This document shows positions 21,801 to 51,280 of a stretch of DNA of 64,000 nucleotides, in pieces. A program made the translations under genes and the position numbers. The notes under the pieces are model-generated. The model searched no databases and had not been told where the DNA came from. It saw only the letters and a list, made by a program, of their open reading frames with translations. Every line of letters begins with the position of its first letter. Positions within the stretch are counted from its first letter, which is position 1. This DNA is from Opitutia bacterium (GTDB lineage: Bacteria > Verrucomicrobiota > Verrucomicrobiia > Opitutales > Seribacteraceae), in assembly GCA_018675995.1 (NCBI GenBank), contig JABGWZ010000065.1, positions 783 through 64,782 on the forward strand. The letters are read 5' to 3'.

Positions 21801-23492
21801 ATGAATTCATGCAACCGCAACTTTTCATCCATCGTAGTTGATGGCGATGATCGTGCCCCCAATCGTTCGATGCTCAGAGCAGTTGGCTTCGAAGACGAAG
21901 ACTTTGAGAAACCACAGGTAGCTGTTTGTTCTGCCTGGAGTATGGTCACTCCATGTAATTCCCATCTTGATGAATTAGGTAAAGCATCAGTCAAAGGAGT
22001 TGATGAAGCAGGGGGAAAAGCGGTTCCTTTTGGAACTATAACCGTTTCAGATGGAATTAGTATGGGTACACCAGGAATGAGGTATTCCTTAGTATCTCGG
22101 GAAGTAATTGCAGATTCAATTGAAACTGTTGTTGGAGCTGAGGGAATGGACGGTTTAGTAGCCATCGGAGGATGTGATAAAAATATGCCAGCCTGCGTTA
22201 TGGCTTTGGCTAGACTAAACAGGCCGGGAATTTTTGTTTATGGGGGAACGATCCTGCCAGGTATTCATAAGGAAAAAAACCTCGATATAGTATCTGTGTT
22301 TGAGGCTGTCGGTTCACATGCTGGTGGTTCGATCGATAAGGAAGAACTTACTGCCATTGAAAAAAAAGCCATTCCTGGGCCTGGTTCCTGTGGCGGAATG
22401 TACACGGCGAATACAATGTCATCTGCTATAGAAGCACTGGGAATGAGCTTGCCTGACAGTTCTGCACAACTTGCAGTTTCTGAAGATAAAAAAATCGATG
22501 CCAAAGATGCTGGTGCTGCAGTTGTTAACCTAATTGAAAAAGATATTAAGCCAAGGGATATCATGATCCGAAAGGCTTTTGAAAACGCAATAACCGTTGT
22601 TATCACATTAGGCGGCTCAACTAACGCGGTTCTCCACCTTATAGCAATGGCTCATTCAGCGGATGTTCCGCTTGGACTAGACGACTTTACGGCAATCGGT
22701 AAACGGGTTCCCGTTCTTTGTGACCTCAAGCCAAGTGGAAAATACAACATGTCCCATTTTGTCAGAATCGGAGGTCTTCGTCCCCTTCTTAAAACTCTTT
22801 TGGAAGAAGGACTGCTGCATGGTGATTGTATGACTGTAACTGGAAAAACTCTTGCTGAAAATATCTCTGATGCAGAACCTTATGCACCCTACCCTAAAGG
22901 ACAGGATCTAGTTCGTCCATTTAATGAACCGATTAAAAAAGATAGTCACCTCCGCATTCTATATGGCAATCTTGCTGCTGAAGGTGCTGTGGCAAAAATT
23001 ACCGGAAAAGAAGGTCTGAAATTTAATGGAAAAGCCATTGTATTCGACTCCGAGGAACAATCTATTCGCTCGATTCTCAATGGAGATGTCAAAGCTGGAC
23101 ATGTGGTAGTAATTCGTAACGAAGGACCAGTAGGTGGACCAGGAATGCGTGAAATGCTTTCACCCACATCTGCAATAATGGGCAAAGGACTAGGTAAGGA
23201 TGTTGCCCTTATAACAGACGGGAGATTTTCCGGTGGAAGCCACGGTTTCGTTGTTGGTCATATTACCCCAGAGGCAGCAGTGGGTGGCTTAATTGGTCTT
23301 TTGGAAAATAATGACCCCATTACAATCGATGCCGAAAAAAATCTGCTTACTCTAGATCTGCCTGACGAAGAAATAGAGCAAAGAAAATCAATCTGGGAAC
23401 AACCCGAACCAATAGAAAAACGGGGCGTTCTCGCCAAATATGCAAAACTGGTAAGCTCAGCATCACTGGGTGCCATTACAGACGGAGATTAA
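21801..23492 (+). CDS. ilvD: Dihydroxy-acid dehydratase
   Basis: [49 protein letters not shown]. Confidence 0.97.
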
Positions 23493-23499
23493 TATTTTT

Positions 23500-25068
23500 A
23501 TGAAACCCGAACTCTATTTATCACATCCGGAAGCTCATTTTTGGGCAGATTTTTCCTTTGTTGATTTCCCTAATGACTATTTAGATGAAATGAAAGGATC
23601 GATAGAAGATGCTCTCGCACAAATGAAGAAATTGGAAGGAGGCTCAATAGCTAACCCCGACGAGAACAGAATGGTCGGCCATTATTGGCTGCGTAATCCA
23701 AGTTTAGCACCAAGCAAGGAAATTTCATCTGCAATTCAATCTACGCTTACGAAAATCAAAGATATTACCGATCATATTAGCTCGGGATCTCTTAAGTCAC
23801 CACACGGCAAATTTACTGATCTGTTAGTTATTGGCATAGGCGGCTCAGCATTAGGTCCTCAATTTGTTGGGCGAGCACTGGGACACCCAAAATCTGATTT
23901 GCTCAAGGTTCACTTTTTTGACAACACAGACCCTGATGGTATTGACCTGACATTGGCCGAAATTGGCCCTGCTCTTAAAACAACCCTCGTTCTAGTTATC
24001 TCAAAGTCGGGTGGAACAGCAGAAACCAGAAACGGGATGCTAGAAGCTGAAAATGCTTTCCAAAATGCCGGACTAAGCTTTCCCGCACATACGATCGCTA
24101 TTACTGGTGAGGGCAGCAAACTTCATTTACATGCAAAAGAAAAAGGTTGGCTCGATTTCCTACCAATGTGGGACTGGGTTGGCGGAAGGACTAGTGAAAC
24201 CGCTGCTGTTGGGCTTATGCCAGCAATACTACAGGGAATCGACATAGACGACTTTCTTCTTGGAGCAAGCCAAATGGATGAGCTTACTAGAAATTCCAAT
24301 TTCAAAGAAAACCCTGCAGCTATGCTTGCCCTTTCCTGGCACCTTCTAACAGAAGGCAAAGGTGCAAAAGATATGGTTATTCTGCCCTACAAAGACAGGC
24401 TTGAGTTGTTTGCAAAATACCTACAACAACTCATCATGGAATCCCTAGGAAAAGAAAAAGATTTAGATGGAAATATTGTCCTTCAAGGAATTTCAGTTTA
24501 CGGAAATAAAGGATCAACTGACCAACACGCCTATGTACAGCAATTAAGGGAGGGAGTTCCAAATTTCTTTGCCACTTTTATTGAAGTTCTTAAACATCGA
24601 GATAACCCATCTATTGATGTGGATGAAGATGGAATGAGTACAGGCGATTACCTACATGGGTTTTTCCTTGGTACAAGAGATGCCCTATATGAAAAAAATC
24701 GAAAATCTATCACACTTACCATTTCTGAAGTTACCCCTGCATCAATTGGACGCTTAATTGCTCTATTTGAAAGAACTGTAGGGTTGTATGCGTATCTTAC
24801 AAATATCAATGCATATCACCAACCTGGCGTCGAAGCCGGCAAAAAAGCAGCTTCTGCGGTACTTGAGATTAGAAAATTAGTTACAGATGCATTAATATCC
24901 AATCCAGGTCGCGAACAAAATGCTTCTGAAATTGCCGTAATGATTAATAAACCAAAAAATGAGAAATGGGTCTTCAAAATTCTAGAAAGCCTCTCGATTA
25001 ACCAACCTGAAAAAGTCATACGAAAAAGTATGAGGCATCCATTACAGGATCGGTTTATTTATCGATAG
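23500..25068 (+). CDS. pgi: Glucose-6-phosphate isomerase
   Basis: DENRMVGHYWLR, IGIGGSALG, ISKSGGTAET, WVGGRTS, QQLIMESLGK, QPGVEAGK. ATG 23500 (7 nt after the ilvD stop) is preferred to 23470. Confidence 0.96.
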   Translation: MKPELYLSHPEAHFWADFSFVDFPNDYLDEMKGSIEDALAQMKKLEGGSIANPDENRMVGHYWLRNPSLAPSKEISSAIQSTLTKIKDITDHISSGSLKSPHGKFTDLLVIGIGGSALGPQFVGRALGHPKSDLLKVHFFDNTDPDGIDLTLAEIGPALKTTLVLVISKSGGTAETRNGMLEAENAFQNAGLSFPAHTIAITGEGSKLHLHAKEKGWLDFLPMWDWVGGRTSETAAVGLMPAILQGIDIDDFLLGASQMDELTRNSNFKENPAAMLALSWHLLTEGKGAKDMVILPYKDRLELFAKYLQQLIMESLGKEKDLDGNIVLQGISVYGNKGSTDQHAYVQQLREGVPNFFATFIEVLKHRDNPSIDVDEDGMSTGDYLHGFFLGTRDALYEKNRKSITLTISEVTPASIGRLIALFERTVGLYAYLTNINAYHQPGVEAGKKAASAVLEIRKLVTDALISNPGREQNASEIAVMINKPKNEKWVFKILESLSINQPEKVIRKSMRHPLQDRFIYR

Positions 25069-25596: not shown

Positions 25597-26199
25597 CTAA
25601 AGGGGTGGCAATCCAGGCGGAAGGGGACCAAAAGGAGACTCTTGCGGAGTTAAATCTCCATTTGGCTCAACTGACAAACTATCTATTGGTAGAGGTGCAA
25701 ATGGTGGAAGTTCATTATTCGGCGGGCTCGTTACATCAGGAAGGTCAGCAGGAGGAAGAATGAGCTCATTTGGAACGGGGAAATTATCATCCTCTCTTTC
25801 CTCCTTAGTTTCAATACCCAAACTTTCGGTAACTACAGTATCGTTTGGTGCCTCCTCCTCGGAAGGAGTTTCAGCATTTGGAAGATCCGATGTGACTGGT
25901 TCACCATCTGTTTTTAGATCCTCCTTTTTCACATCTCGCTCCCACCATTCCCTGTAAACAAGCGTGCCATCTTCTTTATACTCCTGGACTGCTCCCCAGC
26001 GAGAACCTCCGATCATTGGTATAATAAGCCTTCTTTCAGGATCATATTTGTGCTGTGCCCTCCACACTTTTTCAACTTTAGCGACTGGTTTCGAATAAAG
26101 ATTAGGCGGTTGAGTTCTATAAGAGTAATTCTTACCGGCATTGCAGGAACAAAAAAGGAGCAAAACCAAACTTAAAAATTGTGGTATTAATCTTTTCAT
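25597..26199 (-). CDS. Uncharacterised lipoprotein with acidic/Pro-rich tail (paralog of 30973..31587)
   Basis: Signal peptide ending LLLFCSC, a 48-aa domain alignable to the 31-kb lipoprotein, and C-terminus SPFGPLPPGLPPL. Confidence 0.8.
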   Translation of the reverse strand: MKRLIPQFLSLVLLLFCSCNAGKNYSYRTQPPNLYSKPVAKVEKVWRAQHKYDPERRLIIPMIGGSRWGAVQEYKEDGTLVYREWWERDVKKEDLKTDGEPVTSDLPNAETPSEEEAPNDTVVTESLGIETKEEREDDNFPVPNELILPPADLPDVTSPPNNELPPFAPLPIDSLSVEPNGDLTPQESPFGPLPPGLPPL

Positions 26200-26226: not shown

Positions 26227-26694
26227 TTATTTAATACTTGATAACAATCGTAACTTATTTGAACTCATACTAAAGCATTCAATCTCACCAGATTCCATAT
26301 TGCAACGATAGATCCACCTTTCATTTTCATCACAGATAAATTGGTACTTTTTTAAACTCTCTTTAGATTTATTATCTAAAAAGAGTTTAATAAAGGAATT
26401 TTCCAATCTTTGATAATCTATGGAAACCGGTTCAGGATATGATCTTTTGATTTCTAAGACCAAGTCATTGAAATACTTCTGCAATTTAATTTCAATATCA
26501 TGCGCTAATAAAAGCTCATGTTCAGTACCGCTAGGAATTTCAACTCCAATATCACTTTTTTCAGAGAATTCAATGCCACCTACCGAGCTATTATTATCTG
26601 TAAATGAGGGCTTTTTATCCTCTATCGTGCATCCCTCAAAAATAAAAAAGGAAATTAAAAAAAGGATCCTGAAACTTAAATTAAGATTAAACAT
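26227..26694 (-). CDS. Hypothetical exported protein, possible lipoprotein
   Basis: Hydrophobic N-terminus ending FIFEGC (non-canonical lipobox). Co-oriented 27 nt upstream of the lipoprotein gene. Confidence 0.6.
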   Translation of the reverse strand: MFNLNLSFRILFLISFFIFEGCTIEDKKPSFTDNNSSVGGIEFSEKSDIGVEIPSGTEHELLLAHDIEIKLQKYFNDLVLEIKRSYPEPVSIDYQRLENSFIKLFLDNKSKESLKKYQFICDENERWIYRCNMESGEIECFSMSSNKLRLLSSIK

Positions 26695-27791: not shown

Positions 27792-28562
27792 CTAATTTTT
27801 TTTCGGTGGTCTTTTGTACCAAAACCAACACATCAATCTACTTTTTAAAGCCCACGGAAATAGAACAGGGATCATCATTGATAATAAAATCTGTAATGGA
27901 CTAAACCAAGAAAGTTTCCTCGAGGATGTCACCACTGGAAACTGGTCTATTATCTCAAAGATCTCTCCATTTGCCCGGCATAGTCTTTTATAATTAATTG
28001 AAAAGAGAATTTCTTCACCTGCAAATAACTTTTCAGAGAACCCCCCTATTTTTTCGAAATATTCTTTTCGACAGAATACAAAGCTACCGGCTGCAATTCT
28101 GAAATTTTTAGATATACATGTCCAGAGCTTTGGAACAAGAGACCCAAAAAAGAATTGGTTTTGATGGTCATCAAAAACGAGCGTCGAGCCACCACCCGCA
28201 CAAGACCTTGATTTCAGCCTTTCAAGAACATTTGCCAATAACGATTGAGATATAAATGTGTCAGCATCAATGAAAAAAAGATAGTTGCCACTTGCCTTAC
28301 AAGCACCAGCATTTCTTGCTTTCGAAATCTGGTTTACAGGTTCAAAAACAACTATTGCACCTTTGGACTTAGCAATATCTGAAGTTTTGTCGTTCGAATT
28401 ATTATCAACTACAATAATCTCACCTTTAAAGTTAGAGATTCCATTTATGCAACGATTAAGATGGTCGAGCATTCCCCCTAGGAGTGCCTCTTCGTTGTAA
28501 GCAGGAACTATTACAGAAAAATGCACAAAGTCATTTTTCCTAATCTGTCCTTTAACAGGCAA
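27792..28562 (-). CDS. Glycosyltransferase family 2
   Basis: SVIVPAYNEE, IIVVDNNSND, ARNAGA, FIDADT, VVTSSRK. Confidence 0.9.
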   Translation of the reverse strand: MPVKGQIRKNDFVHFSVIVPAYNEEALLGGMLDHLNRCINGISNFKGEIIVVDNNSNDKTSDIAKSKGAIVVFEPVNQISKARNAGACKASGNYLFFIDADTFISQSLLANVLERLKSRSCAGGGSTLVFDDHQNQFFFGSLVPKLWTCISKNFRIAAGSFVFCRKEYFEKIGGFSEKLFAGEEILFSINYKRLCRANGEIFEIIDQFPVVTSSRKLSWFSPLQILLSMMIPVLFPWALKSRLMCWFWYKRPPKKN

Positions 28563-28579
28563 TTCGTACTTTAATGATG

Positions 28580-29152
28580 TTATTTAGAAAACTTTTTAGC
28601 TCTTTTGCTAATCCCAAATGAAAGTCCTGAAATCCAACCTTCCATTCTTGCCTTTGGTCGCTGAGAGTAAACATCACTATCTCCTACACTATTAATCATT
28701 TTTTCACCTGATATATCAGATGCAATTTCATTTAAGGTCGGAACATTTACACCATGGTCTTCAACCTTTTTATGCAGAAAAGCTAACCGATCGATCTCCA
28801 ACTGCTCAGATAAACTGGCTAAAGTTTGCCTAAATTGAGCAACATCTCCATTCCCATTAAGTACATCGGAATTTACTTCCGAAATTGCACTATTGTCAGA
28901 CTCAGGGGAATTAATATTTTCGGTTTCAGCATGCATGGAACCAGAATCTATATCACCACCCAAAGACGATCTAGAATCATCATCGGCAGGTACAGTAACA
29001 GAATCTGAATCTGATGGTGCATGACTAATTTCAATAGTCTGAGCATCCTCAACGGGATCTAAGTTTTTATCAGCAGCAAAGGCTTCTTCTGATGCATCGG
29101 CATCCGATGCGGAAGAAGAGTCACTATTATTTTCTTCGGGGGGGGTATCCAC
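28580..29152 (-). CDS. Acidic low-complexity hypothetical protein
   Basis: 190-aa ORF with a D/E/S-rich first 100 aa, a helical middle and a basic C-terminus. GTG start. Confidence 0.7.
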   Translation of the reverse strand: MDTPPEENNSDSSSASDADASEEAFAADKNLDPVEDAQTIEISHAPSDSDSVTVPADDDSRSSLGGDIDSGSMHAETENINSPESDNSAISEVNSDVLNGNGDVAQFRQTLASLSEQLEIDRLAFLHKKVEDHGVNVPTLNEIASDISGEKMINSVGDSDVYSQRPKARMEGWISGLSFGISKRAKKFSK

Positions 29153-29236: not shown

Positions 29237-30142
29237 TCATTCCTCGTCAGGTTTTACTTCTACAGGTTTATTTTCAGCAACATAAACCCCGCTCCGCTCA
29301 ATGGTAAGCAATTGTCCAACAACAGCATATGATGGGTCACTTACCTGTTCCTCGCTTACAAACTCAAGAAATGAAAAGTTTTGCTGAACCAATGTAGCTT
29401 TAAGGCGAAAAGGTAAAATTGAGGATGCGTTTTCGTTCTTGGTTAAAAATTCCATGTTTTCCCTAAATCCGTTCTCATACCCTTCATTTATAAAGAAACC
29501 CTTTCCGGAGGGTGCACGATTAGCGACTTCAACACCTCTTTTATCTCCGTAGTAAATATGGAATGGTTTTTTTATCACCTCCATCATTCTTTCTTGTTCC
29601 TCCATAAAATTATCAACCGATAGGTTTCTTGTATTTTCCAATAATTCAAACTTCGACTGAACCTTATCGGCATTGCTTTTCACCAAGGCTAGATTCTGAC
29701 TCACTTTTATTTTTTCCTCTTCTAAAAGTTTTTTCTTTTCCTCGAGGGGTAAACTTTGTTTAGCAATCTCGTCAAGAGGAACTCGAGCAGTTGAAACCTT
29801 CTCTTCTGTTACAATCAATTCTTCATTTTTCGCTTTATTTTTCTTTTTTAAATCGGCAAGTTTTCTTGTGACTCCATCAATTTCTAGCTCTAAATTCCCG
29901 ATTTTAGAAACCTGCTCTTCTTCCTTATTTCGAAAGTCTACTCTCGAACGGAATACAATAGACAACTCTTTCTCGGATTCATTTTTATCAGCATCTAATT
30001 GAACAACCAATTCATCATGCTCTCGAGTAGCATTTTCAAGGTTTTGCTTAAGAGAAGTCGGTCCTAAATCGCTGACAACGATATAAACGACAATACCGAC
30101 TAAAGAAAGCCACGTACATGCTCTAAAGATAAACAAGATCAA
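29237..30142 (-). CDS. Membrane-anchored coiled-coil protein with C-terminal FlgT-C-like beta domain (B)
   Basis: N-terminal TM helix, about 170 aa of E/K/L heptad-rich sequence, and INEGYENGFRENMEF. Confidence 0.75.
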   Translation of the reverse strand: MILFIFRACTWLSLVGIVVYIVVSDLGPTSLKQNLENATREHDELVVQLDADKNESEKELSIVFRSRVDFRNKEEEQVSKIGNLELEIDGVTRKLADLKKKNKAKNEELIVTEEKVSTARVPLDEIAKQSLPLEEKKKLLEEEKIKVSQNLALVKSNADKVQSKFELLENTRNLSVDNFMEEQERMMEVIKKPFHIYYGDKRGVEVANRAPSGKGFFINEGYENGFRENMEFLTKNENASSILPFRLKATLVQQNFSFLEFVSEEQVSDPSYAVVGQLLTIERSGVYVAENKPVEVKPDEE

Positions 30143-30971
30143 AATCTTTAATTTCCATTAGCTCTTTAGGGGATCCTAGAAGAGGTACTATCATTGCGAC
30201 GCAGTGGTCAAATGCAACTTCCTTAATTCTTACCTGGCAAATATTTTTCCCCTTCGCACGAACGGAAAATAGCATACTCTGTTCGATACCATGATTCTTG
30301 CCAACGGGAAGCACCAAAATTCCTGTAACTAGATCTAAGGTGGACGAAGAAACTGTGAGTCTTTCTCCTCGCTCAAGCCAGGGGTGTTCATAAAAATCCT
30401 TTTTTAGCCCAACAATAGTGTAGTCATAATGCTGTTTTAAAATCTGTGTCTCTTTTTCATAGGTGGTTAATTTCTCCTCTAAATCAAACTTTCTTTTTTC
30501 TTCATTGCTAATTTGATTTCTTAAAATGCTAATCTCCTGCTCAAGCACTGGTATACTCATAGACAATCTCCTCAAGTTTTCCTGGGCTGTTCTTACCTCC
30601 GCATCCATACCTGCCATGCTTAATTTGCTTTTTTGGATTGAAGCAGACAAATCCTCTAATTCTTGATCAGCAACTTCAGTCGAAGTTTTTAATTCATCTC
30701 GCTTTCTTTCAAGATCCACGATCTCGTCTGTCTTGGCGTTGCCAGACTCCTCCAACTCAGAATTCTTTCTCTTCTCACGATTAAGTTTATCAGCTTGCCC
30801 ATTTTTTGCTTCCTCAACTGCAAATTTCATCTCAGCAGATTTTGTCGCCATAATCTTCAACTCGTTTTGTAAAAATTCATTTTCAGCTTGGGTGGAGAAA
30901 ATTTCCCAAGCAATAAGAATACACAATATTAATGCAACTGAGTTCAAACCATATGCAACTTTCGAGATCAT
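30123..30971 (-). CDS. Membrane-anchored coiled-coil protein with C-terminal FlgT-C-like beta domain (A)
   Basis: N-terminal TM helix (from ATG 30971, MISKVAY, 1 nt after the lipoprotein TGA), a long heptad region, and LPVGKNHGIEQSMLFSV. Confidence 0.75.
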   Translation of the reverse strand: MISKVAYGLNSVALILCILIAWEIFSTQAENEFLQNELKIMATKSAEMKFAVEEAKNGQADKLNREKRKNSELEESGNAKTDEIVDLERKRDELKTSTEVADQELEDLSASIQKSKLSMAGMDAEVRTAQENLRRLSMSIPVLEQEISILRNQISNEEKRKFDLEEKLTTYEKETQILKQHYDYTIVGLKKDFYEHPWLERGERLTVSSSTLDLVTGILVLPVGKNHGIEQSMLFSVRAKGKNICQVRIKEVAFDHCVAMIVPLLGSPKELMEIKDFDLVYL

Positions 30972-30972
30972 A

Positions 30973-31587
30973 TCAAAGAGGCGGCAAGGGGGCGAAGGGA
31001 GAAGGTGGAGGTGGTGTGGCATCATTTGCAGGTGGCAAGTCTTCCTGCATTAAAGGTAAGGATTGATCCTCGAAAGGTTCTTGCGAAGGCATATCTATAC
31101 CTTGTGGAATAAAGGGAGCAGGTACAAATTCATCTCCTCCAACAAGCGACTCATCAGTTTTCTCTTCAGATTCATTATCACCCTGTTCCTCTATTGTTGC
31201 AATTTCCGATAACTTTAACCTCCGAGCTTCCACAAGAACTTCATTTGCTTCCTCCCAACGAGATTCACGTAAAGTATCTAATCTTGCATTGTGATATTTA
31301 AGCAAATTTTCACCCTTGAATGGTTTCATCACCCAGTATCGATCGTAATCGACTCGGCCATTCGTATCCCTACCCCGAATACGCCCAACTTTTTTCTCTT
31401 CGTACATGGAAACCATTCTTCTGTTATCTAAGTCGTAATGGTACCTTGAACCCCAAGCCTGATGAACTTTTGCAACTTGATTTTTGTCCATAGCCCCACA
31501 GCCAATAAGAAACAAACTAATTGGAAACGAATATAAAAAATGTAAGAGCTTTGGATTCAAACATGTACATTTAAATTTATTCATCAC
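30973..31587 (-). CDS. Uncharacterised lipoprotein with acidic/Pro-rich tail
   Basis: Lipobox LIGC, a domain shared with 25597..26199, and C-terminus PPPPSPFAPLPPL. Confidence 0.8.
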   Translation of the reverse strand: MMNKFKCTCLNPKLLHFLYSFPISLFLIGCGAMDKNQVAKVHQAWGSRYHYDLDNRRMVSMYEEKKVGRIRGRDTNGRVDYDRYWVMKPFKGENLLKYHNARLDTLRESRWEEANEVLVEARRLKLSEIATIEEQGDNESEEKTDESLVGGDEFVPAPFIPQGIDMPSQEPFEDQSLPLMQEDLPPANDATPPPPSPFAPLPPL

Positions 31588-40733: not shown

Positions 40734-41717
40734 CTATTCCCGGTCAAGCCAATCGCCGTTCTCATTTTGATAAGAATCAGTATAAATTCCGTCCCCCCAA
40801 TCATATAAGCCTTCCATAGCTAAGCCATTTTTGAACTGACCAGTGAAACTTGTTCCATCCCCAAAGTTTAAAGTTCCCAGACCTTCTTTTTCTCCACGAA
40901 ACCAAGAACCACTGTAAACGGCCCCCGAAAAATCACTTTGCGTTCCTTCTCCATCAGGTACTCCATTAACAAACTCTCCAGAATAAACCGCTCCATCCGA
41001 TTCTTTGAGAATTCCATAGCCATCATATACGCCTAGCTTAAATGACCCTATAAAGATACTACCGTCAATTAAACTTAAAATCCCCTGACCAGAAAATTCA
41101 TTATTTTGAAAGTCGCCACTGTAATGTTCTCCACCAATTGTACGCAGACTCCCCCTTTCAAACAACCCCTGGTTCTTGAATGTTCCGCTGTATTCTCTTC
41201 CATCCTCCAGTTTCATAAAACCTTCGCTCAAATATTCGCCTTCCCATTTCCCGGACATGAGCACCCCGTTTGGACTTTTATATTCTCCAATGTACATACT
41301 ATCATTTTTCCAATCTCCCACTAAAGTTGAACCATCGAGTATGACAAGTGTACCAAAACCATTTCTTTTACCGCTCTTCCAACTACCTACATATTGATCG
41401 AGTTTATCGTCAGATTTATATTTCATCGTTCCATGTCCATGAGCTAACCCATTTTTATACTGCCCTTCATAAATATCTCCGTTAACTAATTCGTGTTTAC
41501 CATAACCATTAGGTTCGCCCATAACGAGTTGGCCTTCATAAACGGATCCATCCTTGAAAATATGCCTTCCCTGTTTAGCTTCTTTCTTTAGACTAAGAGA
41601 TTCCCGAGAGGATGGCATTGCCTTATCTTCGTCAACTTCCTGACTACAACCAATAAATAGCAATGCATTGATTGATAATAGAAAAGAATATGTATTTTTA
41701 ATTTTTTGTAGTCCCAC
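40734..41717 (-). CDS. MORN-repeat lipoprotein
   Basis: Lipobox-like FIGC and about 11 repeats of xG..Y.G.W/F..G...G.G. The GTG start is 1 nt after the gspF stop. Confidence 0.88.
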   Translation of the reverse strand: MGLQKIKNTYSFLLSINALLFIGCSQEVDEDKAMPSSRESLSLKKEAKQGRHIFKDGSVYEGQLVMGEPNGYGKHELVNGDIYEGQYKNGLAHGHGTMKYKSDDKLDQYVGSWKSGKRNGFGTLVILDGSTLVGDWKNDSMYIGEYKSPNGVLMSGKWEGEYLSEGFMKLEDGREYSGTFKNQGLFERGSLRTIGGEHYSGDFQNNEFSGQGILSLIDGSIFIGSFKLGVYDGYGILKESDGAVYSGEFVNGVPDGEGTQSDFSGAVYSGSWFRGEKEGLGTLNFGDGTSFTGQFKNGLAMEGLYDWGDGIYTDSYQNENGDWLDRE

Positions 41718-41718
41718 T

Positions 41719-42978
41719 TCAGTAGCTTATACTTTTACTTACTTGAAATATACTACTTACGATAGAAATTGCAACAAGTGCAACCAAAGAAAAAGCAAAA
41801 CCTAAAGCACCACCAGATACCAAGGTAGTCATGGTCTTAATCTTTTTAGTCAATTGAAGGCGAAAGGCCTTACTGCTATCCTCCATGCTATTGCCTAAGT
41901 TACCAGTCCTCTCCCCAACCTCAAGAATATCAAGTTGCATGAGAGGCATTAGTCTAAACTTCCTTAAAGCCTCAGGCAAAGACTTCCCTTCATTGACCAA
42001 AGCACGAGCTGAACGGAACTTGTTTCGGATGTAACGATTTTTGATCGTCTTCTCGCATAATCTCAGGTTTTCGGTTAAACCAATGCCACTCCAAATTAAG
42101 GTTGATAATAAACTCGCTAACTGAAACATTTCGGATAAATAAAAAATATTCCCAAAAAGAGGTAGTTTAAGCAAAGACTGATCGAATGCCATCCCACCTT
42201 TTTCAGTTTTGCTCCACTGCAGAACTGATGCAGAGGCAATTAAAAGAGCGAGAAGAAAAAAAGGACCCACTGCGAGAACCCAATTTGAACCATTAATTAA
42301 AACTTTTGCCATTAAATTAAGTTCTCCCCCTAGAGAAGCCAGCATTTCCTCAATTTGCGGTAATAGAAAAAATAAAAAAAACAACACCACCCCAAAGGCG
42401 ATCAATCCAACAAAAACAGGATAAGCCATACTGCCCAAAACCTTCGATCGAATTTCTCGCTTTTCTTCCAAATGAGAAATCACCTTTTTTAAAATTGGTG
42501 AAACATTTCCTGTTGCCTCACCTGCTTCAATCACAAAGCTGGACGACTCGCTAAAATATTGTGGTAAGTTTCTCATCGAACGTGATAAAGTTTTTCCCTC
42601 GGCCAATTCTTTCCATAAAACCCCGGCTATTTCTTTTTGGCCAGGATCTGAAAGTCGCTGATTAAGTAACTTCACCGCATCTGCGATCGGCATACCACTG
42701 CTGTGAAGCTCGAGCAACCTTTTGAGAAATTCGAGTCCTATTTTTTCTCCCTTTCCACCAAGTGACCTCTTTTTTCCCCCTCGGAGCTTATTTTGCAAAC
42801 TTACATTTTTTTTTGTCTTAGTTTTGCTTTTCCCTCCGTCTCCGGAAGCTTTTACCTTGATCGGGGTTAAGCCATTTTGCTTAATTTTAAGGCGTGCCTC
42901 CTTGATGTCGTTAGCAACAATCTCGCCAGGCGCAGTTTTCCCACGAAGGTCAATGGCAACATAACTAAACCGAGCCAT
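41719..42978 (-). CDS. gspF: T2SS inner-membrane platform protein F
   Basis: SSGMPI, AGEATG, YPVFV, GERTGNL. Located in the T2SS operon. Confidence 0.88.
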   Translation of the reverse strand: MARFSYVAIDLRGKTAPGEIVANDIKEARLKIKQNGLTPIKVKASGDGGKSKTKTKKNVSLQNKLRGGKKRSLGGKGEKIGLEFLKRLLELHSSGMPIADAVKLLNQRLSDPGQKEIAGVLWKELAEGKTLSRSMRNLPQYFSESSSFVIEAGEATGNVSPILKKVISHLEEKREIRSKVLGSMAYPVFVGLIAFGVVLFFLFFLLPQIEEMLASLGGELNLMAKVLINGSNWVLAVGPFFLLALLIASASVLQWSKTEKGGMAFDQSLLKLPLFGNIFYLSEMFQLASLLSTLIWSGIGLTENLRLCEKTIKNRYIRNKFRSARALVNEGKSLPEALRKFRLMPLMQLDILEVGERTGNLGNSMEDSSKAFRLQLTKKIKTMTTLVSGGALGFAFSLVALVAISIVSSIFQVSKSISY

Positions 42979-42989
42979 TCGAAAAATTG

Positions 42990-44789
42990 TTATACATTTG
43001 AAACAAAATCATTCTGCTCATCTACAGCTACCGCAGAATCTGAGTAGCGGATGACTTCATCGACTGTAGTTAATCCACGCTTAATCTGACTCCAACCACT
43101 TGACTGAAGAGTGCTCATTCCCTCCCTCAAGGCAACCTCCCGAATATCCGGAGCTGAAGCACTCTTAATAACTAGACTATGTATCGGTTCACTCATTCTC
43201 ATTAATTCAAAAATGCCTACCCTACCCCGATAGCCAAGGTTTTGACAATCGGGACACCCAAACGCTTCCAAAATTTTGTCCTTATATTTAATTTCTGATT
43301 CTTCTGCATCTAATAAGGCAAGGGATGCAATAATTTCCATATCTGATTTTGTAGTCGGCTTGGAACATTTAGAACAGAGTCTGCGAACTAGTCTTTGCGC
43401 AATAACCATCTCAACTGAAGAAGCGATCAGAAAAGGTTCTATTTCCATATCTATTAACCGAGTAATTGCACCTGGGGCGTCATTTGTGTGCAGAGTACTT
43501 AAAACCAAATGCCCGGTTAAGGAAGCACGAATCGCAATATCAGCAGTTTCTCGGTCTCGAATTTCTCCAACCATAATGACATCGGGGTCCTGTCGTAAAA
43601 TTTCCCGTAATGCACTTGCAAAAGTGAAGCCTATTTCAGAATTAACCTGTGTCTGATTGATGCCAGCGACTTCATACTCCACTGGATCCTCTACAGTCAT
43701 TATCCTACGTTCGGGTTTATGAATTCTACGAATGAAAGCGGTTAATGAAGTTGATTTACCTGACCCAGTCGGTCCAGTGACAAGGACGATACCGTGAGGC
43801 TTTTCCAAAACTGAAATGATATTTCTTTCGTCAATGCCCAACAAACCGAGTTCCTTCATAGAAAGTGGCTGTGATTTTTCATTTAAAAGACGTAGACTAA
43901 TACTTTCTCCGTACAGAGTCGGTAAGGTGGAAACTCGAATATCTAAATCACTTTGCCCTTGAGAAAATGTTATCCTTCCACCCTGAGGTCTTCTTTTCTC
44001 AGATATATTAATACCACTCATGATCTTGATACGGGATATTATTGCGTCCTGGAAGCTACGAAGATTATCTGGCACACGAACTGGTACAAGTTGTCCGTCA
44101 ATCCGGTAACGAATCTGTAGTGTGTCCTTGTGAGGCTCAAAATGAATATCAGTGGCTCGGTCCACAATTGCGCGTTGGATAACCTCATTTACAAAGCGAA
44201 TAATCGCGGCATTTTGATCTTCTAGATCATCCTGCTCATCTTCCTCCCCATCCTCCTCAAAATCTTCATCATCCAAACTGTCTGCCCCAACTCCGAAATT
44301 TTCTGTGATCGCTCTCGAAATCTTTTCGGGAGACCCCAAGCGCCAAAGGGGCTTAAGACCTGAAACCGCAAAAACCCATCGACTCATTTTTTCCGAAGGT
44401 GGCCACGGTGTGACAATGCATAGTTTTCCACCCGCATTGATTTCCGTTGGTAAACAACAATAGTTGTGTATCAACCTCATCGAAAGCAGCTTAGTTGGAT
44501 TTTCCGGTAATTCAAAGTCTTCAATATATTCAAGGTCAGTTCTTCGACCTATTTCTACCATAATATCGACAACCGGCTTTGAATACTTGGATGCAAGGAG
44601 CCTAGCACGGTCTTCCTTCGGCGAATTTAAAATATTTAAACGATCCAAGTCAGCCAGATCCGGCCACCAATCCATATGTTCAAAGCTCTGATTAAAATCG
44701 AAAGCCAAATTCGAATTTTCACCACTTCCCTCTTCTGAATTTTCATTCTCATTCTCTGCTTTTTGAGTTCTGCTTTTTATTCCAACCAT
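42990..44789 (-). CDS. gspE: T2SS ATPase E
   Basis: [41 protein letters not shown]...CPDC. Confidence 0.92.
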
Positions 44790-44794
44790 AATAA

Positions 44795-45307
44795 CTATTT
44801 CCGCGGTGGACTAATTCGAGGTGGAACCCGGTTTTTAGATTGGGTATTTGGCCTTTTGGGAGAAGATATTTGCGGTTTTGATAAAGATGTTTTTTTGATT
44901 GGTTGACCACTTGGAACAGGAAGCACAAGGTTCGAAGCATTTTTTAATGTAAGGGAAAAACCTCCCTTTAGTTTAACCTCTTCGGAATCTTCGTCGTATC
45001 CAACAATCTCAACCTTGCCATCGTCAAATCTCTCGCCAATTTTCAACCACGCACCTTTATTCTTTGATCGATCGTGAAGACTAAAGTACCACTCATCTTG
45101 GAAGAGAAACATCCCTCTCAATTCAACATTTGGGTTCATTGATACAGGAGCAGGGGGCTGAGGAGCAGGGCGAACAACTGTGGGAGGTTTTGCTTTTCGC
45201 GAACCTGGTCGCTCAAAAGGATTTACATTTTGAGCGGTAAGAAAAGGACCCAAAAAAAGTAAAGTAATAACTCCTGTAAAAAAAATAAACTTACTCTTCA
45301 AATTCAT
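44795..45307 (-). CDS. GspC(HR)/PilP-like protein, no PDZ domain
   Basis: Hydrophobic N-terminus, NPF motif, Pro-rich linker and beta-domain ELRGMF...WLKIGE..DG...IV. It lies between gspD and gspE. Confidence 0.6.
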
Positions 45308-45312
45308 TAAAA

Positions 45313-47640
45313 TTAGAAATTAGGTTTACTGGATTGAACATCCTTATTAAATTTAGATCTCTCTTGCTTTCCATCAATATCCGGCATTCCTAAAATATGT
45401 CCAGAAGGGGAACGAAATTTGGGTGCGTATTCGGCCTGAATACGGTCATCAATCGTTTTAACATTCTCGGCAGTATCATCTTGACCAGACTTGATAATTG
45501 TTGGCTTAAGAAAAATAAGCAGTTCAGTCGGAGTATATTTTATGGTTTTAGGCTTAAAAAACCTATCCCCGAAATAAGGAATATCACTAAGCAAGTTATA
45601 CTTTGATTCAGTGGAGTCTACCTGTACTTCCTGAAGACCGCCTAGGACAATAATTTCTTCATCCCGAATGGTTACAAATGATTTTGCTTCACGAACTTTC
45701 TTTCCTGGAGCACTCTGCCCCTCATAAGTATTACTCTGAGTTTCGTCAAACTTTTCAGCTTTTACCTCTACCTCCATAAAAATCGACCCCTTAGAAATAA
45801 TTGTTCCATTCTCATCCATCAAGGGAAGTCCAATTTTAGGTTTTTTTATTTCCAAAGAGGTTTTGGCAGTAATTTTCTGCAAATTACCGCCAGATGATGT
45901 CCCAGTACTCCCACCAGCATAGACATTGGGGATAACTAAAGACCTTTCATCTTCAATCAAAATGTGAACTTCTGGGGCATTATGGGAGACCATAAGGGAG
46001 GGCGTGGAAAAAATCCGGACATCATTTCTCTCCGAGGAAAGAGAAAATATCTGATCCCAGCGCAGTCCAGTTAGTTTCCAATCCTCCATTTGAAAAGGCA
46101 TGCTTGAATTTAAGCCAGGTATACCCAATACACCCTCGAAACTGTTTGTTTTTTGAGGAGCACTGACTGTTGTAGTACCATCTGAACCTGGAACATTAAT
46201 ATTAGTCACCTCTCCAAATAAACCCTCCCCCCTTTCTCCTCTCGCGTACTTAGACCATTCTAACCCTCCAAACAGTGCATCAATTCCGCGTTGATTCTGT
46301 TCAGACAAATCTACCATAACAAAGATTGTATCAATACGTGCGAGCGGCAGTGGCTCGTCTAACGATGCGATCATTTTACCTACTTCCTCAATATCACCTT
46401 TTGTACCGTACACTAAAATGGCATTACTGCGTTCGTCCGCAGATATTGAAATAAAATCACTAAATTCATGAGAACTGTCACCGCTTTCTGTAGCAGTGGT
46501 GGGCTGACCAGTTGTTGCAGCAACTTTTTTACCACCAGGAAGGGCAGCTTGTGTTGTCGCCCCCTGGGGTACTATTTTTTTGTTCCCCTGTAGCTTACTT
46601 TTAATCTGCTTTTGATTATTGATTACTTCATCTAAGATTTTTTGAATTGCGGGGGCTTCGGCGTGCTGGAGCTTGAACAGTTTGCTTGTTGTTTTCATTT
46701 TTACGGGAGAATCCAATGTTTCGAGTATAAATTCAATAGTAGGAATATTCTCTTTCCTGGTAACCACGATCAATTTACCCGTTCGATCATCAGAATCTAC
46801 TTGAGTGGTCCCACCCAAAAAAGATTTCAAACTCCCCTCAATCATTGCTTTCAATTTGGTTTCGAGCTCTCTTGCACCAGCGTGAAGTGTATTATGTACA
46901 AAAAATTCTGTACCCAATTCTTCAGCACTTATCGGGCGGTCAATTCCTTCCAAAAGCCTTTCCATTCTTTGTAAATTCAAAAGCGAATCTGTAATTAAAA
47001 TACTGTTTGCTTTTTCGAAAACCAATAAACTACCCACATTAGGAGTTGAAAAAGGATTTAACTGTTCACGAACCTCAATCGCAGGAGCATATTGAAGGTG
47101 GAACATTTTAACATATATTCTTTGACTTGGTTTTAAAGCAGATGCTGGCCCCTCAATCCAAATTGGCACATAAACATTCATATTTGTTGCAGGTACAGCC
47201 TTAAAAAAACGTTCGCCTATCTTGGTGATACCGACACCATTCATTGCCAAAAGACTTTCTAATGCACGAAGGGTTTCTCTTTTTGTTAAAATAGAAAAAC
47301 TATCAAAATTAATTTTAACAGCAGGTAAATTCTGCGGTCTCAAAATATACCTTTCAGTAATTAATTGAATCATATCCAAAATAGAATTCGTATCACTGTC
47401 CCTAAGCTTTAGCCTTTCCATAGGCTCATCAAGTCCATCTATTGACAAAAGTTCGTCTGGGTCGGAAGTTAGAAAGTCCATTCCCAACTCAGATTCCAGA
47501 AACTGATTAGAACCAGTAATTGGCTGTTCAGTTTGCTCGACTGGAACCCCTTGTCCAAAAACGGTCAAGTGAAAAGTTAGCGAAATCCAAAAAACAACTA
47601 GTTTAACCATTGGGATACGATAAAATGTTTCTATTGTCAT
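45313..47640 (-). CDS. gspD: T2SS secretin D
   Basis: N-domains (LQYAPA, ERSNAILV), secretin FSTPSLMV, IVLGGL, LSDIPYFG, ELLIFLKPTII. Confidence 0.92.
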   Translation of the reverse strand: MTIETFYRIPMVKLVVFWISLTFHLTVFGQGVPVEQTEQPITGSNQFLESELGMDFLTSDPDELLSIDGLDEPMERLKLRDSDTNSILDMIQLITERYILRPQNLPAVKINFDSFSILTKRETLRALESLLAMNGVGITKIGERFFKAVPATNMNVYVPIWIEGPASALKPSQRIYVKMFHLQYAPAIEVREQLNPFSTPNVGSLLVFEKANSILITDSLLNLQRMERLLEGIDRPISAEELGTEFFVHNTLHAGARELETKLKAMIEGSLKSFLGGTTQVDSDDRTGKLIVVTRKENIPTIEFILETLDSPVKMKTTSKLFKLQHAEAPAIQKILDEVINNQKQIKSKLQGNKKIVPQGATTQAALPGGKKVAATTGQPTTATESGDSSHEFSDFISISADERSNAILVYGTKGDIEEVGKMIASLDEPLPLARIDTIFVMVDLSEQNQRGIDALFGGLEWSKYARGERGEGLFGEVTNINVPGSDGTTTVSAPQKTNSFEGVLGIPGLNSSMPFQMEDWKLTGLRWDQIFSLSSERNDVRIFSTPSLMVSHNAPEVHILIEDERSLVIPNVYAGGSTGTSSGGNLQKITAKTSLEIKKPKIGLPLMDENGTIISKGSIFMEVEVKAEKFDETQSNTYEGQSAPGKKVREAKSFVTIRDEEIIVLGGLQEVQVDSTESKYNLLSDIPYFGDRFFKPKTIKYTPTELLIFLKPTIIKSGQDDTAENVKTIDDRIQAEYAPKFRSPSGHILGMPDIDGKQERSKFNKDVQSSKPNF

Positions 47641-47653
47641 ATAATTTTCAGAT

Positions 47654-48196
47654 TTACTGATTTACAAACTCAACTGAACTAACGACAAAGAGTGCATCAT
47701 AGGTTGTTGGCTCGTAGGGTCTGGACGGATACTTAGGCTCAATCTTCACTTCACTTAAAAACATATATGGGCTTTCCTGCCGAATAAGACTGGCAAACTC
47801 ATTCACGGCATCATAAGAGGCTCTTGCGAATTTTATCCTAACCCTGTGCTGGGAATATCTCTCTCTTTCCTCAGTATCCAATTCCTTGTAATCTCTTTGA
47901 GGATAAACCTGCCGAGAAAGAGCATCAGTGCGATTCGTAAGATTAGTTTTATCGTAACTTTTGTTCGCTTGCTCAAGCTTTTGCTTTTCCAAGGCTAAAT
48001 CTATTCCAGGCTTAAGATTAATGACCATTTTATGACCTTCGATTACAGATTGTGTTGTCTGCCATTCGTGGTGTAGAGATAATCCGCTTTGTAGTATTTT
48101 AAAAGCGCAAACCAAAACAATAACCCAAAGCGAGAGCAAAAGCAGAGTTTGTTCTCGGTTATTAAACCTGAAGAATATTTTCTTTACGGCGTTCAT
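47654..48196 (-). CDS. GspM-like inner-membrane protein
   Basis: NNREQTLL followed by a TM helix, a coiled segment and a ferredoxin-like C-domain. It follows the gspL-like gene. Confidence 0.7.
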   Translation of the reverse strand: MNAVKKIFFRFNNREQTLLLLSLWVIVLVCAFKILQSGLSLHHEWQTTQSVIEGHKMVINLKPGIDLALEKQKLEQANKSYDKTNLTNRTDALSRQVYPQRDYKELDTEERERYSQHRVRIKFARASYDAVNEFASLIRQESPYMFLSEVKIEPKYPSRPYEPTTYDALFVVSSVEFVNQ

Positions 48197-49455
48197 CCTT
48201 CAGATTTGTCCGGAGAGAAAGAGGAAGGTTCTCTCATAAATGCAGATTTAATAGGAACTTCTTCAATAAGTTTAAATTCGATATCAAAAGACATTTTGCC
48301 TTTTGCACTCTTAATTTCCCTCATCTCCTCACCAGATCTTCCAACCCGTACAGTGGCCACATTATTTTTCTTTAAACTTTCTATAAAGTTATTCATAACT
48401 TCAATCGTTTCACAAACACCCTCAAGAGCAACTTCGTTACGACTCTCAAAATGAGCCATTGAAAAGTAAAGGCTCGGTTTATCATCAGTACCTCCACGAT
48501 AAGCAGCGAAACGAACTAAGGAACCGAAGGGGTCGATACCCCCTAACTTGTTTTGACGAAGTTTTTCAAGAAGCTTTTGGGATTCAATTACTAAAGGAAC
48601 CTCCGATGCCATTTTTTGGCTAAGAAGTTTTTTATCATCCAACTTGACACCCATTATTTTAATTCCAGCAAACGCTAACAGCATGGCCGCCATACCAACA
48701 CTCCACGCGATCATTCCCTTCCATCGAGCTCGGGCCAACTTTCTCGTTGCCTGCTCCGCATCCTTGAAATCACTTTGCCTTAAATCAGATGTCCATAAGG
48801 CATCAGCATCAACAACCACATCCTGGTCAATCTCTAAGTCTGCATCTTTTCCATCTAACCATTCGTGCTCAAATCGAAAAAAACCATCTTTTGTACGTAT
48901 AACATCGTGAGCAACCAAAATATCCTTTGAGATTTCATACTTTTCTAAATTAAATAAAGAAAGAAGTTTCCCACGGGCATGTTCAACCGCCTCATCACCC
49001 TCATCTTCATCAAGGGCCAAAGAGTACAACAAATCCGGAATATTCGAGTCAGTTTGAAAAGCCCCTGCTGTTAGAGTGTCCTCGAACAACATAAAAGCCA
49101 AAGTGGGTTCTGTGTACTCTTTTCCTAACAATGAAATAAAGGAGGGGAAAACTCTTCGAAAATATTCAAGATTCTGCCAGCCCATTTGCCTAAGCTTTAG
49201 CAATGGAGTAGCAAAAATGAAAATTTGTTCATTCGCTTCATTTGCCTGAAACCCCCATGCCAATTGGTCAGCTGGATAGGGAGAAAAAACCCCTCCATTT
49301 AAAACAAACTCAGCAAAGTCCTGATATTTTTCAGGCTTCAGTGAGGATGGTAGCTCAATTGTGTCACAAAAAAAGTGCTCCCCAGGAATACGAAGGGTAA
49401 TTTCTCGAAGTTCTCTAACTGGGAACTCAGTTACTTTTTCTGAGGGGTCAGCCAT
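48193..49455 (-). CDS. GspL-like inner-membrane protein
   Basis: Large cytoplasmic domain, a single TM helix (IAWSVGMAAMLLAFAG) and a periplasmic VALEG domain. It follows gspK. Confidence 0.7.
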   Translation of the reverse strand: MADPSEKVTEFPVRELREITLRIPGEHFFCDTIELPSSLKPEKYQDFAEFVLNGGVFSPYPADQLAWGFQANEANEQIFIFATPLLKLRQMGWQNLEYFRRVFPSFISLLGKEYTEPTLAFMLFEDTLTAGAFQTDSNIPDLLYSLALDEDEGDEAVEHARGKLLSLFNLEKYEISKDILVAHDVIRTKDGFFRFEHEWLDGKDADLEIDQDVVVDADALWTSDLRQSDFKDAEQATRKLARARWKGMIAWSVGMAAMLLAFAGIKIMGVKLDDKKLLSQKMASEVPLVIESQKLLEKLRQNKLGGIDPFGSLVRFAAYRGGTDDKPSLYFSMAHFESRNEVALEGVCETIEVMNNFIESLKKNNVATVRVGRSGEEMREIKSAKGKMSFDIEFKLIEEVPIKSAFMREPSSFSPDKSEG

Positions 49456-49490
49456 AAAAATGGATAATTAGATTAGCAAAATTCATACTC

Positions 49491-50567
49491 TCAGTCGATT
49501 AAATTCTCATTCTCCCGAATCGCTAAAATCCGAAATGGCAATTTCATTTTGGTATTCTGAGAGCTTCTGGGCTTTATTTCTTTTTTCCTACGAGAAGTAT
49601 TTGATTGTCCACCTGTTGAGCTTTCAGCAGCTAAAACCACATGTAATTTAAAATTCGCTTTTCCTTTCGACACATCAATCCTAATCCTGAAAACAGTTGC
49701 TGTAACCCCAGTGCTAATTGATCGTTTTTGCCTCAATTGCCTAAGGTTTTGATGATTCATGCTCTTAAAAAAGGGTTCACCACTAGAACTAGATGGACCA
49801 TCAAGCATTTCCTCAAATAGTCCCTCATCATCTCCGCATAAAAACCTGAGTAAAAAGGGAGAAGCTGTGTTGATGTTAACTGGTCCATCATGAAAAAAAG
49901 AAAAGCTATCACGGAAATTCTGCATTTGAATTTTTTCGCTTCCATCTTCGGCAAAAAAAAGTCCAGATTCCTCCGGATCTTCTTCATCGTATCCAAAGCC
50001 TTTAACCATTCTTAACTCCTCGAAGTTCTCGATTTTTTTGCCAGGCGTGAAATACGGAAATTTAAAATCCTCATAATAATCATCCTCAGCACCCTCATCT
50101 CTGTCATCATCATCTGCATCCTGCCAGTCCATCAGACTATCAAAAAAAGGCTGTCCATCATCATCGCTGACAAGAGAATCCTCATCCGCACTCATAACCG
50201 CAAATAAAGAAACTAAATCTTTTTCCTTGATAGAGCCCAATGAGACTTTACCCGTTTCATCAATAATCGAAATAGACAACTTAACGGTCGGATCAAGTAA
50301 ATCAATCTCTGAGTAAGCTAATGGATCACCCCAACCCTGTGACGGTGCAAACAAAGTCTTCTCAACCAATACAAACTCATTTAAAACACCCATTGCTAAA
50401 TCCAGTCCCGAGTATGCATGAATCCTCAAGTCATCTCTACGGTGGAATTGACTAACATGTCGTAATTCCTGAACAGTTTCCTCCATTAAGCGCATGCACA
50501 AAACGGAAAGCATTACGATCAAAACCAATATGAATACCAGTATGGAACCTTTCGTCTTATGGATCAC
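49491..50567 (-). CDS. gspK: T2SS minor pseudopilin K
   Basis: KG|SILVFILV prepilin-like site, IIDETGKV, DSLMDWQDAD, EELRMVKG, VNINTA. Confidence 0.9.
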   Translation of the reverse strand: MIHKTKGSILVFILVLIVMLSVLCMRLMEETVQELRHVSQFHRRDDLRIHAYSGLDLAMGVLNEFVLVEKTLFAPSQGWGDPLAYSEIDLLDPTVKLSISIIDETGKVSLGSIKEKDLVSLFAVMSADEDSLVSDDDGQPFFDSLMDWQDADDDDRDEGAEDDYYEDFKFPYFTPGKKIENFEELRMVKGFGYDEEDPEESGLFFAEDGSEKIQMQNFRDSFSFFHDGPVNINTASPFLLRFLCGDDEGLFEEMLDGPSSSSGEPFFKSMNHQNLRQLRQKRSISTGVTATVFRIRIDVSKGKANFKLHVVLAAESSTGGQSNTSRRKKEIKPRSSQNTKMKLPFRILAIRENENLID

Positions 50568-51280
50568 TAAAAAGGTTCCTCCTCAATGCCAGTAGGTGAA
50601 ATTCTTCGAATCGGCAATGTTATGGTTCTTTCCAAGTCTTCATCTTCCCAGGAAAATACTAATTTCATAAAATCTGGCGTACGATATTTTCCACTCCGAA
50701 TATCTTCTTCTAAATCGTCAACTATTTCCCATTCCTTAAGGTCATCATCACCTTCATTATCATCTCCATAATAGCAGTAGAAAACTTCTGTGCAAAATGA
50801 ACTTATTGATGTCTTAAATAATTCGTCTTCATCTTCAAGCTCCATGTTGCCCTCATCATTTTTTTCTAATTCCTGGAGTTCTGAATACCACAAAATACTC
50901 AATCCCTCCCCTTCGACAAATTGGAAGAAACAGTGCACCCGAGCTGCTGGTCCATTAGGCCAAACCAAAAGGGGCGGCCCCTCTCTTAAATAAAAATGAA
51001 TAAGTGGATCTTCAGATTCAGAGTAACCAATAGGTCTTTGTAAATCGATTGGTTGATCCCCAGATCGGCTGGAAGCAGGAAGGCTAGCCTCCTCAAGAAC
51101 AGCAGTAAGAAAGTGAGCGACACCGTTAATGTGGGCATCAAATGCGTCCCGCGTTGCAGGTCTTTCTGCCCATGCTCTGGAAATGGTAATCAATAAAGAT
51201 GTTGCAGTGGTGAGAACTAATCCCCCAATGGTCAAAGCGAGTAAAACTTCGACCATTGAAAATCCTTTCCTGGCTTTCAT
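50567..51280 (-). CDS. gspJ: T2SS minor pseudopilin (GspJ position)
   Basis: RKG|FSMVEVLLAL N-methylation motif and gene order. Confidence 0.75.
   Translation of the reverse strand: MKARKGFSMVEVLLALTIGGLVLTTATSLLITISRAWAERPATRDAFDAHINGVAHFLTAVLEEASLPASSRSGDQPIDLQRPIGYSESEDPLIHFYLREGPPLLVWPNGPAARVHCFFQFVEGEGLSILWYSELQELEKNDEGNMELEDEDELFKTSISSFCTEVFYCYYGDDNEGDDDLKEWEIVDDLEEDIRSGKYRTPDFMKLVFSWEDEDLERTITLPIRRISPTGIEEEPF

Follow-up and report, generated by a model that had tools for sequence, protein, structure and literature searches.

A conserved, lineage-specific lipoprotein and coiled-coil–barrel gene module with a putative cell-envelope function in Opitutales

Within a stretch of 64,000 nucleotides from an Opitutia bacterium (hereafter the window, the whole stretch of DNA that was analyzed; GenBank assembly GCA_018675995.1, contig JABGWZ010000065.1, positions 783 to 64,782, forward strand), we identified a real, conserved and previously undescribed gene module. 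In this module a lipoprotein gene (Lpp) is followed by genes for two proteins, A and B, each of which carries one N-terminal transmembrane (TM) helix, a long helical rod and a small C-terminal beta domain; an acidic protein (D) and a second lipoprotein (Lpp2) share its distribution. The plan of A and B is MreC-like and is built on a known type of barrel, and the function of the module in the cell envelope is putative. Direct support comes from the gene layout, the protein architecture, the fold and homology of the barrel, the paralogy of A and B, the co-inheritance of the genes and the conservation of protein length. No description of such proteins was found in the literature for Verrucomicrobia or Planctomycetes. 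The core of the module comprises the following features:

30973-31587, minus strand: Lpp, a predicted lipoprotein of 204 aa, whose likely real start is the ATG at 31584
30123-30971, minus strand: protein A, 282 aa, with an N-terminal signal-anchor TM helix, a long helical rod and a FlgT_C-like barrel
30891-30950, minus strand: TM helix of A, residues ~8-27, from the hydrophobic stretch and the alignment of A
30393-30890, minus strand: helical rod of A, residues ~28-193, from AlphaFold, invariant columns and the 3.5-residue period
30126-30362, minus strand: C-terminal barrel of A, residues ~204-282, six strands and one short helix, FlgT_C-like according to AlphaFold, Foldseek and profile matches
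29237-30142, minus strand: protein B, 301 aa, with a TTG start, a well-supported colinear and diverged paralogue of A
within 29237-30142, minus strand: parts of B, namely TM helix (residues ~8-24), rod (~28-190), probable barrel (~201-285) and acidic tail

A first-pass annotation of this DNA had described three tightly coupled genes separated by a 1-nt gap and then joined by a 20-nt overlap, and the coordinates agree exactly. The TGA stop codon of Lpp occupies 30973-30975 and is followed, after one base, by the ATG of A at 30971, while the stop codon of A (30123-30125) lies inside B, whose TTG start is at 30142. A TAA is present five codons upstream in the frame of B, and the possible starts of B are TTG codons only (30142 or 30136). 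In 9/9 related loci, B starts at the same TTG within the overlap and reads (M)ILFIFR at its N-terminus. A promoter and terminator scan of the locus found sites no more numerous than in shuffled sequences.

The architecture proposed in the first pass for A and B, with one N-terminal TM helix, a long helix and a small beta domain, is supported by the sequences and by AlphaFold modeling of A, and the rod measures ~165 residues. In the full-length AlphaFold model, A forms a single helix over residues 2-193 with a predicted local distance difference test (pLDDT) score of ~90, and the strongest hydrophobic period in the rods of both A and B is 3.5 residues. Coiled coils rise by 0.1485 nm per residue, so that the rod would extend ~24.6 nm if it is a coiled coil. 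Alignment of A orthologues revealed an invariant charged block at residues 51-74 and an invariant P141 in the rod; correspondingly, the alignment of B contains a matching charged block at residues 49-75 and invariant P122 and P132. The length of A is frozen, with zero net indel against a 281-position model in 58 of the 61 genomes of the family, and the weakest matches of A within the family reach down to E ~1e-30. The alignment of ten B sequences at ~50% identity contains zero gaps. In contrast to the rods of A and B, the linkers of the lipoproteins are free to vary in length. A has a single basic residue ahead of its TM helix, the invariant K4, and B likewise has R7; acidic residues lie on the other side of the helix, and this charge distribution suggests that A and B have an N-in/C-out topology.

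The C-terminal domain of A is not recognizable by direct family searches. When Lpp, A, B, D, Lpp2 and a third paralogue of A encoded in the same genome were scanned against Pfam and NCBIfam, only coiled-coil noise came back; Pfam FlgT_C (PF16538) matched neither A nor B, nor any protein across the whole genome, at E≤1, and no Pfam match to FlgT_N or FlgT_M was found in A and B. A barrel profile combining the last 93 residues of A with the domains of the third paralogue was searched against 1.84 billion representative proteins and yielded 398 of them at E≤1e-3. A Pfam scan, which took in 144 of the best 150 of these 398 matches, assigned FlgT_C to 43 of the 144 proteins (best E 2.1e-12) and the Pfam MreC barrel core to eight. 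In many of the matched proteins the domain comes immediately after a signal peptide or a lipobox, so that the barrel is an extracytoplasmic domain.

Structural modeling agrees with this assignment. With a domain alignment of 70 sequences, AlphaFold modeled the barrel of A at pLDDT 91.6 and a predicted template modeling score of 0.81, with the strands and one short helix; in the full-length model, based on a shallow 12-sequence alignment, the same domain had a pLDDT of ~45. In a Foldseek search of the PDB, the top list for the modeled barrel contained V1-ATPase B N-terminal barrels along with, at rank 3, a chain of the Vibrio LPHT ring (8z5n) and, at rank 7, FlgT (3w1e), all with weak E-values of 3.5e-3 to 5.5e-3 and TM-scores of 0.5-0.6. 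Neither the barrel profile nor a lipoprotein profile found anything meaningful among PDB sequences. The C-terminal domain of FlgT is a six-stranded barrel capped by a helix and resembles both the N-terminal domain of F1 beta and the barrel found in periplasmic adaptor proteins (PMC4446572), which is the relation seen here. Together, the intermediate sequences and the predicted fold support the membership of the C-terminal domain of A in a FlgT_C-like superfamily at the domain level, and it is at this level that the likeness to FlgT suggested in the first pass holds. The possibility that A or B is FlgT itself was rejected, as there is no direct FlgT_C match, FlgT_N and FlgT_M are missing and the build is a TM helix, a helix and one barrel.

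BLASTP detected no similarity between A and B. Both proteins nevertheless contain the motif G-x3-G-x4-M-x-F (VGKNHGIEQSMLF in A and EGYENGFRENMEF in B), and the motif columns of the two were superposed in two independent profile-profile comparisons. When the A family was compared with the B family by hhalign, 222 columns aligned colinearly (E 6.5e-5, probability 64%) with the motifs on each other; when the C-terminal domain of B was compared with 166 domains of the superfamily, the whole barrel was covered (probability 77%, E 2e-5). Moreover, the hidden Markov model (HMM) of the domain directly matched B orthologues of another genus (E 7.6e-8 and 2.2e-7, calculated per genome), and domain HMMs scored 31-32 bits on residues 201-292 of an other-genus B orthologue, whereas none of 600 shuffled controls exceeded 6.6 bits. 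The TM helix, the charged block, the proline hinge, the linker and the barrel are colinear in A and B. By these comparisons B is a well-supported diverged paralogue of A, and its C-terminal domain probably has the barrel fold. The relation and the shared motif that had been read from the sequence in the first pass were thus recovered by profile comparisons, and plain BLASTP is blind to the relation.

Three further genes on the same strand belong to this region:

28580-29152, minus strand: acidic protein D, 190 aa, downstream of B
27792-28562, minus strand: family 2 glycosyltransferase (GT2), 256 aa, with a hydrophobic C-terminus (Pfam Glycos_transf_2, E 3.9e-22)
25597-26199, minus strand: Lpp2, 200 aa, a predicted lipoprotein paralogous to Lpp

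The order on the minus strand between 27.8 and 31.6 kb is thus Lpp, A, B, D, GT2. Between GT2 and Lpp2, a 155-aa open reading frame (26227-26694, minus strand) has a lipobox-like FEGC and no family match; most related loci conserve it at this place, with GT2/GFO on one side and Lpp2 on the other, and it is absent in one genus.

Lpp and Lpp2 are predicted to be bacterial lipoproteins on the strength of their lipobox cysteine. The signal peptide of Lpp ends in the lipobox LIGC, and the G-C-G sequence (G29, C30, G31) is kept in all nine Lpp orthologues; the alignment columns of G29 and C30 are nearly invariant, that of G31 is invariant, and Lpp2 has FCSC instead. The conserved N-terminal domain of Lpp measures ~50 aa and is followed by a helix of ~45 aa and an acidic linker; its two proline-rich motifs are FVPAPFIPQGIDM and, at the C-terminus, PPSPFAPLPPL. 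Lpp and Lpp2 are similar in BLASTP (E 4e-7) and have in common the N-domain, the terminal motif SPF[AG]PLPP (SPFGPLPP in Lpp2) and, upstream of it, a second motif, (F/P)xPxPFxP. A six-frame search of the whole 2.6-Mb genome (92% complete) found SPF[AG]PLPP only in Lpp and Lpp2. A general C-terminal sorting tag was considered and rejected, the motif being confined to the two lipoproteins.

We analyzed the distribution of the module in 151 genomes, sampled evenly across the order; seven of them are all the sampled members of the family of the window. A, B, the lipoproteins Lpp and Lpp2, and D are each found in exactly the same 7 of the 151 genomes, adjacent on one contig. The relatives of A come from marine metagenome-assembled genomes labeled Opitutales, Puniceicoccaceae and Candidatus Seribacter sulfatis, and A is single-copy in 61/61 family genomes from five genera. 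The co-conservation of Lpp, A and B, whose absence would have refuted the first-pass reading, was therefore found, with constant linkage, and the module proved larger than the three genes then recognized, as D and Lpp2 have the same phyletic pattern. The first pass had spoken more broadly of a PVC (Planctomycetes–Verrucomicrobia–Chlamydiae) bacterium; the module itself is confined to one Opitutales family, and what extends to other Opitutales and to Planctomycetota is a family of single genes with the same TM–coiled-coil–barrel build.

Indeed, the genome of the window encodes a third protein of this build (450 aa; contig C10, positions 2330-3682), which adjoins rsmI and a Ppx/GppA-like gene. 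A single gene of the same build (~255-330 aa) occurs in 50 of the 144 sampled genomes outside the family, which represent other Opitutales families (E≤1e-4), where it often lies between pgi and rsmI, and the build is also found in Planctomycetota. By homology, the third paralogue is a member of this wider and older PVC family and an orthologue of the single-copy gene, of ~270 aa, that many Opitutales carry. All copies of the third-paralogue family are annotated as hypothetical proteins, and this widespread family of Opitutales and Planctomycetota can now be named FlgT_C-like. In the window, the phosphoglucose isomerase gene pgi (23470-25068, plus strand) adjoins the Lpp2 end of the cluster. 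Because pgi stands beside that end here and is the direct upstream neighbor of the ancestral gene elsewhere, there are hints that the Lpp-A-B cluster arose at the pgi locus of the ancestral paralogue.

We tentatively propose, at somewhat less than even confidence, that the module is a family-specific envelope device in which A and B form a stalk that serves as a tether, spacer or scaffold, connecting the inner membrane with the outer layers or keeping them apart. The periplasmic stalk is suggested by the coupling of two colinear paralogues with matching blocks and hinges and a frozen rod length close to the width of the periplasm, together with a barrel of an extracytoplasmic type that serves in rings and partner binding elsewhere and two co-inherited lipoproteins with a private proline-rich tail. 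In this model, the N-terminal helix of A and of B would stay uncleaved and hold the protein in the inner membrane, its N-terminus in the cytoplasm, and each protein would project a rod of ~165 residues (~25 nm) with a conserved proline hinge into the periplasm, tipped by a six-stranded barrel of FlgT_C/MreC type. Translational coupling would supply A and B in a fixed ratio, and the two would most likely join in a heteromeric coiled coil with parallel helices. The distal barrels may dock on envelope partners, for which the proline-rich conserved tails of Lpp and Lpp2 are the best candidates, and the inner membrane and outer layers would in this way be connected or held at a distance. What we infer here is the topology, the heteromer, the location of the lipoproteins, the contact of barrels with tails and the tethering function.

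Several points weigh against this proposal. The interaction of A, B and the lipoproteins is a matter of inference, the topology relies on the positive-inside rule with one or two charges only, and an outer-membrane location of Lpp and Lpp2 is putative. As for the barrel, the Foldseek E-values are weak, and the B of the window itself scores ~5 bits with the barrel HMMs, its link to the superfamily running through orthologues and profile-profile alignment. In addition, adjacency is weak evidence because everything nearby is syntenic within the family, and the phyletic argument reflects one origin rather than many independent events. Finally, D, which has no signal peptide, and GT2 have no place in a pure tether.

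The connection and spacing of the two membranes are poorly understood outside Proteobacteria, and the module is a concrete candidate, offering a length-frozen 25-nm rod, a confidently modeled distal barrel and a unique lipoprotein tail motif. To our knowledge, PVC bacteria have no obvious equivalents of Braun's lipoprotein. A bolder and rather unlikely extension of the stalk model is that TM–coiled-coil–FlgT_C-barrel proteins form a PVC-wide class of inner-membrane-anchored periplasmic rulers, present as a single gene in ~40% of the sampled Opitutales genomes and in Planctomycetota, and duplicated here so that A and B are obligate partners in a heteromer, which would have two proline-tailed lipoproteins as its private outer receptors. 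If true, such rulers would be a non-proteobacterial counterpart of the Lpp and TolA-Pal solutions.

Among the alternatives, an MreC-like scaffold is unlikely but deserves the most weight. Here a coiled-coil dimer would offer its barrels to peptidoglycan synthases or hydrolases, as a second, lineage-specific MreC-type organizer of wall growth or remodeling. A and B follow the same plan of TM helix, coiled coil and six-stranded barrel, eight superfamily representatives among 144 match the Pfam MreC barrel core, and in hhalign the G-x3-G motif of the barrel aligns with barrel 1 of the MreC encoded by the same genome. In a structural report, MreC consists of a coiled coil and two barrels (PMC8804602). 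The hhalign match is weak, however (E 0.015, probability 3%), and Pfam MreC barrel core (PF04085) does not match A or B. Genes for penicillin-binding proteins, hydrolases and SEDS (shape, elongation, division and sporulation) proteins are absent from the module, and the rod has more than double the length of the MreC rod. A true mreB-mreC-mreD-pbp2 operon is located on another contig (C218), and on this ground the simpler idea that A or B is the organism's own MreC was rejected. An identity with known murein-hydrolase activators (EnvC/NlpD), which would have refuted the first-pass reading, was likewise rejected, as neither Peptidase_M23/LytM (Pfam and NCBIfam, E≤1) nor any other family was matched by A and B.

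The conservation of D and GT2 invites another reading, distinctly unlikely in our view, in which the module assembles and exports a glycan or glycoconjugate, with GT2 and a membrane-peripheral D at the cytoplasmic face, A and B as a periplasmic conduit or scaffold and the lipoproteins as the outer station. A loose parallel is Alg8-Alg44-AlgK in synthase-dependent exopolysaccharide systems. D begins at a conserved GTG and carries no signal peptide; its N-terminal half is acidic and disordered, its C-terminal half (~90 aa) is conserved, the last residues form a basic amphipathic tail (GWISGLSFGISKRAKKFSK), and its conserved short motifs are DEELADLMADP, VEVGIPP and ESFSINDFEEDF. It lies directly downstream of B in every case and shares the phyletic pattern of the module (7/7 family genomes, 0/144 others); GT2, with its hydrophobic C-terminus, follows D in all related loci, including the distant ones. 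On the other side, GT2 is a small protein of 256 aa rather than a multi-TM processive synthase, and its nearest NCBIfam model, TIGR04283, was matched far below the cut-off. Moreover, the block contains no flippase, polymerase or outer-membrane channel, and A and B have almost no cytoplasmic part through which a synthase could be coupled. If the module were a scaffold for wall or glycan enzymes, a second MreC-type organizer would be defined.

It is improbable that there is no joint machine at all and that the neighbors were co-inherited through regional synteny in a young family, with A and B acting separately, for example as homodimers like the ancestral paralogue. The ancestral family is indeed a single gene, the phyletic pattern amounts to one origin, and in nine loci at ~50% identity the whole region is syntenic, neighboring housekeeping genes included. 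Nevertheless, the gap, the overlap and the TTG start are conserved, five genes have an identical all-or-none distribution, and the block Lpp-A-B-D-GT2 persists between different flanks in two genera that are more distant, one of which has a contiguous cluster Lpp-A-B-D-GT2-Lpp2.

Least probable of all is that the module adds to the flagellar motor a lineage-specific ring or strut in the periplasm, analogous to the Vibrio H-ring, in which FlgT works together with the lipoprotein FlgP: the FlgT_C-like barrel, the places of FlgT and the LPHT ring among the top fold matches and the presence of FliG in 56/61 family genomes (24/25 of those of high quality) favor it, but the module stands away from flagellar genes, 43 FliG-positive genomes of the order have no A, B or Lpp, neither FlgT_N nor FlgT_M is present, the wider barrel family occurs independently of FliG (both in 17 genomes versus 14.9 expected) and A is present in five family genomes where FliG was not found, four of these five assemblies being <90% complete. 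The same 43 genomes led us to reject a core flagellar part, an identity that would also have refuted the first-pass reading. The first-pass remark that no flagellar genes are nearby is true of the window, which contains none, but not of the genome, which encodes FliG on a further contig (C233). As the genome has both mreB-mreC-mreD-pbp2 and FliG, the organism is probably a flagellated rod.

The window also contains a type II secretion system (T2SS) operon (40734-52700, minus strand) with a secretin, GspE and GspF, whose terminal gene encodes a lipoprotein with MORN repeats (Pfam MORN, E 1.5e-32). The operon lies 10 kb from the module, with housekeeping genes between, and A and B gave no Pfam or NCBIfam match to the PilN, PilO or PilP domains of pilus and T2SS alignment proteins (PilN/PilO/PilP or GspL/GspM).

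Periplasmic adaptors of tripartite pumps, whose beta-barrel domain has the same topology as the C-terminal domain of FlgT (PMC4446572), resemble A and B in being periplasmic and having a coiled coil. They differ in that their coiled coil is a hairpin accompanied by lipoyl and barrel domains and their genes have a transporter neighbor, whereas A and B have a single straight helix without a lipoyl domain; correspondingly, A and B gave no Pfam or NCBIfam match to the HlyD family and there is no transporter gene in the block. FlgT of Vibrio (3w1e) has FlgT_N and FlgT_M, while A and B are predicted to be anchored in the membrane on a 25-nm helix and are encoded outside a flagellar cluster; the six-stranded C-terminal barrel is common to FlgT and A, with a transitive profile link, and both would be periplasmic. 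The likeness to TolA-Pal and Braun's lipoprotein is one of functional analogy only, and consists in an inner-membrane anchor, a spacer that is long, helical and constrained in length, and a small domain at its far end with a lipoprotein as partner; the module has no TolQR-like motor genes, and its partner contacts are hypothetical. MreC, with two barrels rather than one and a rod less than half as long, is like A and B a bitopic protein, N-in in the predicted topology of the latter, with a periplasmic coiled coil and a small barrel bearing a G-x3-G-hydrophobic motif, and in both cases the result may be a dimeric scaffold.

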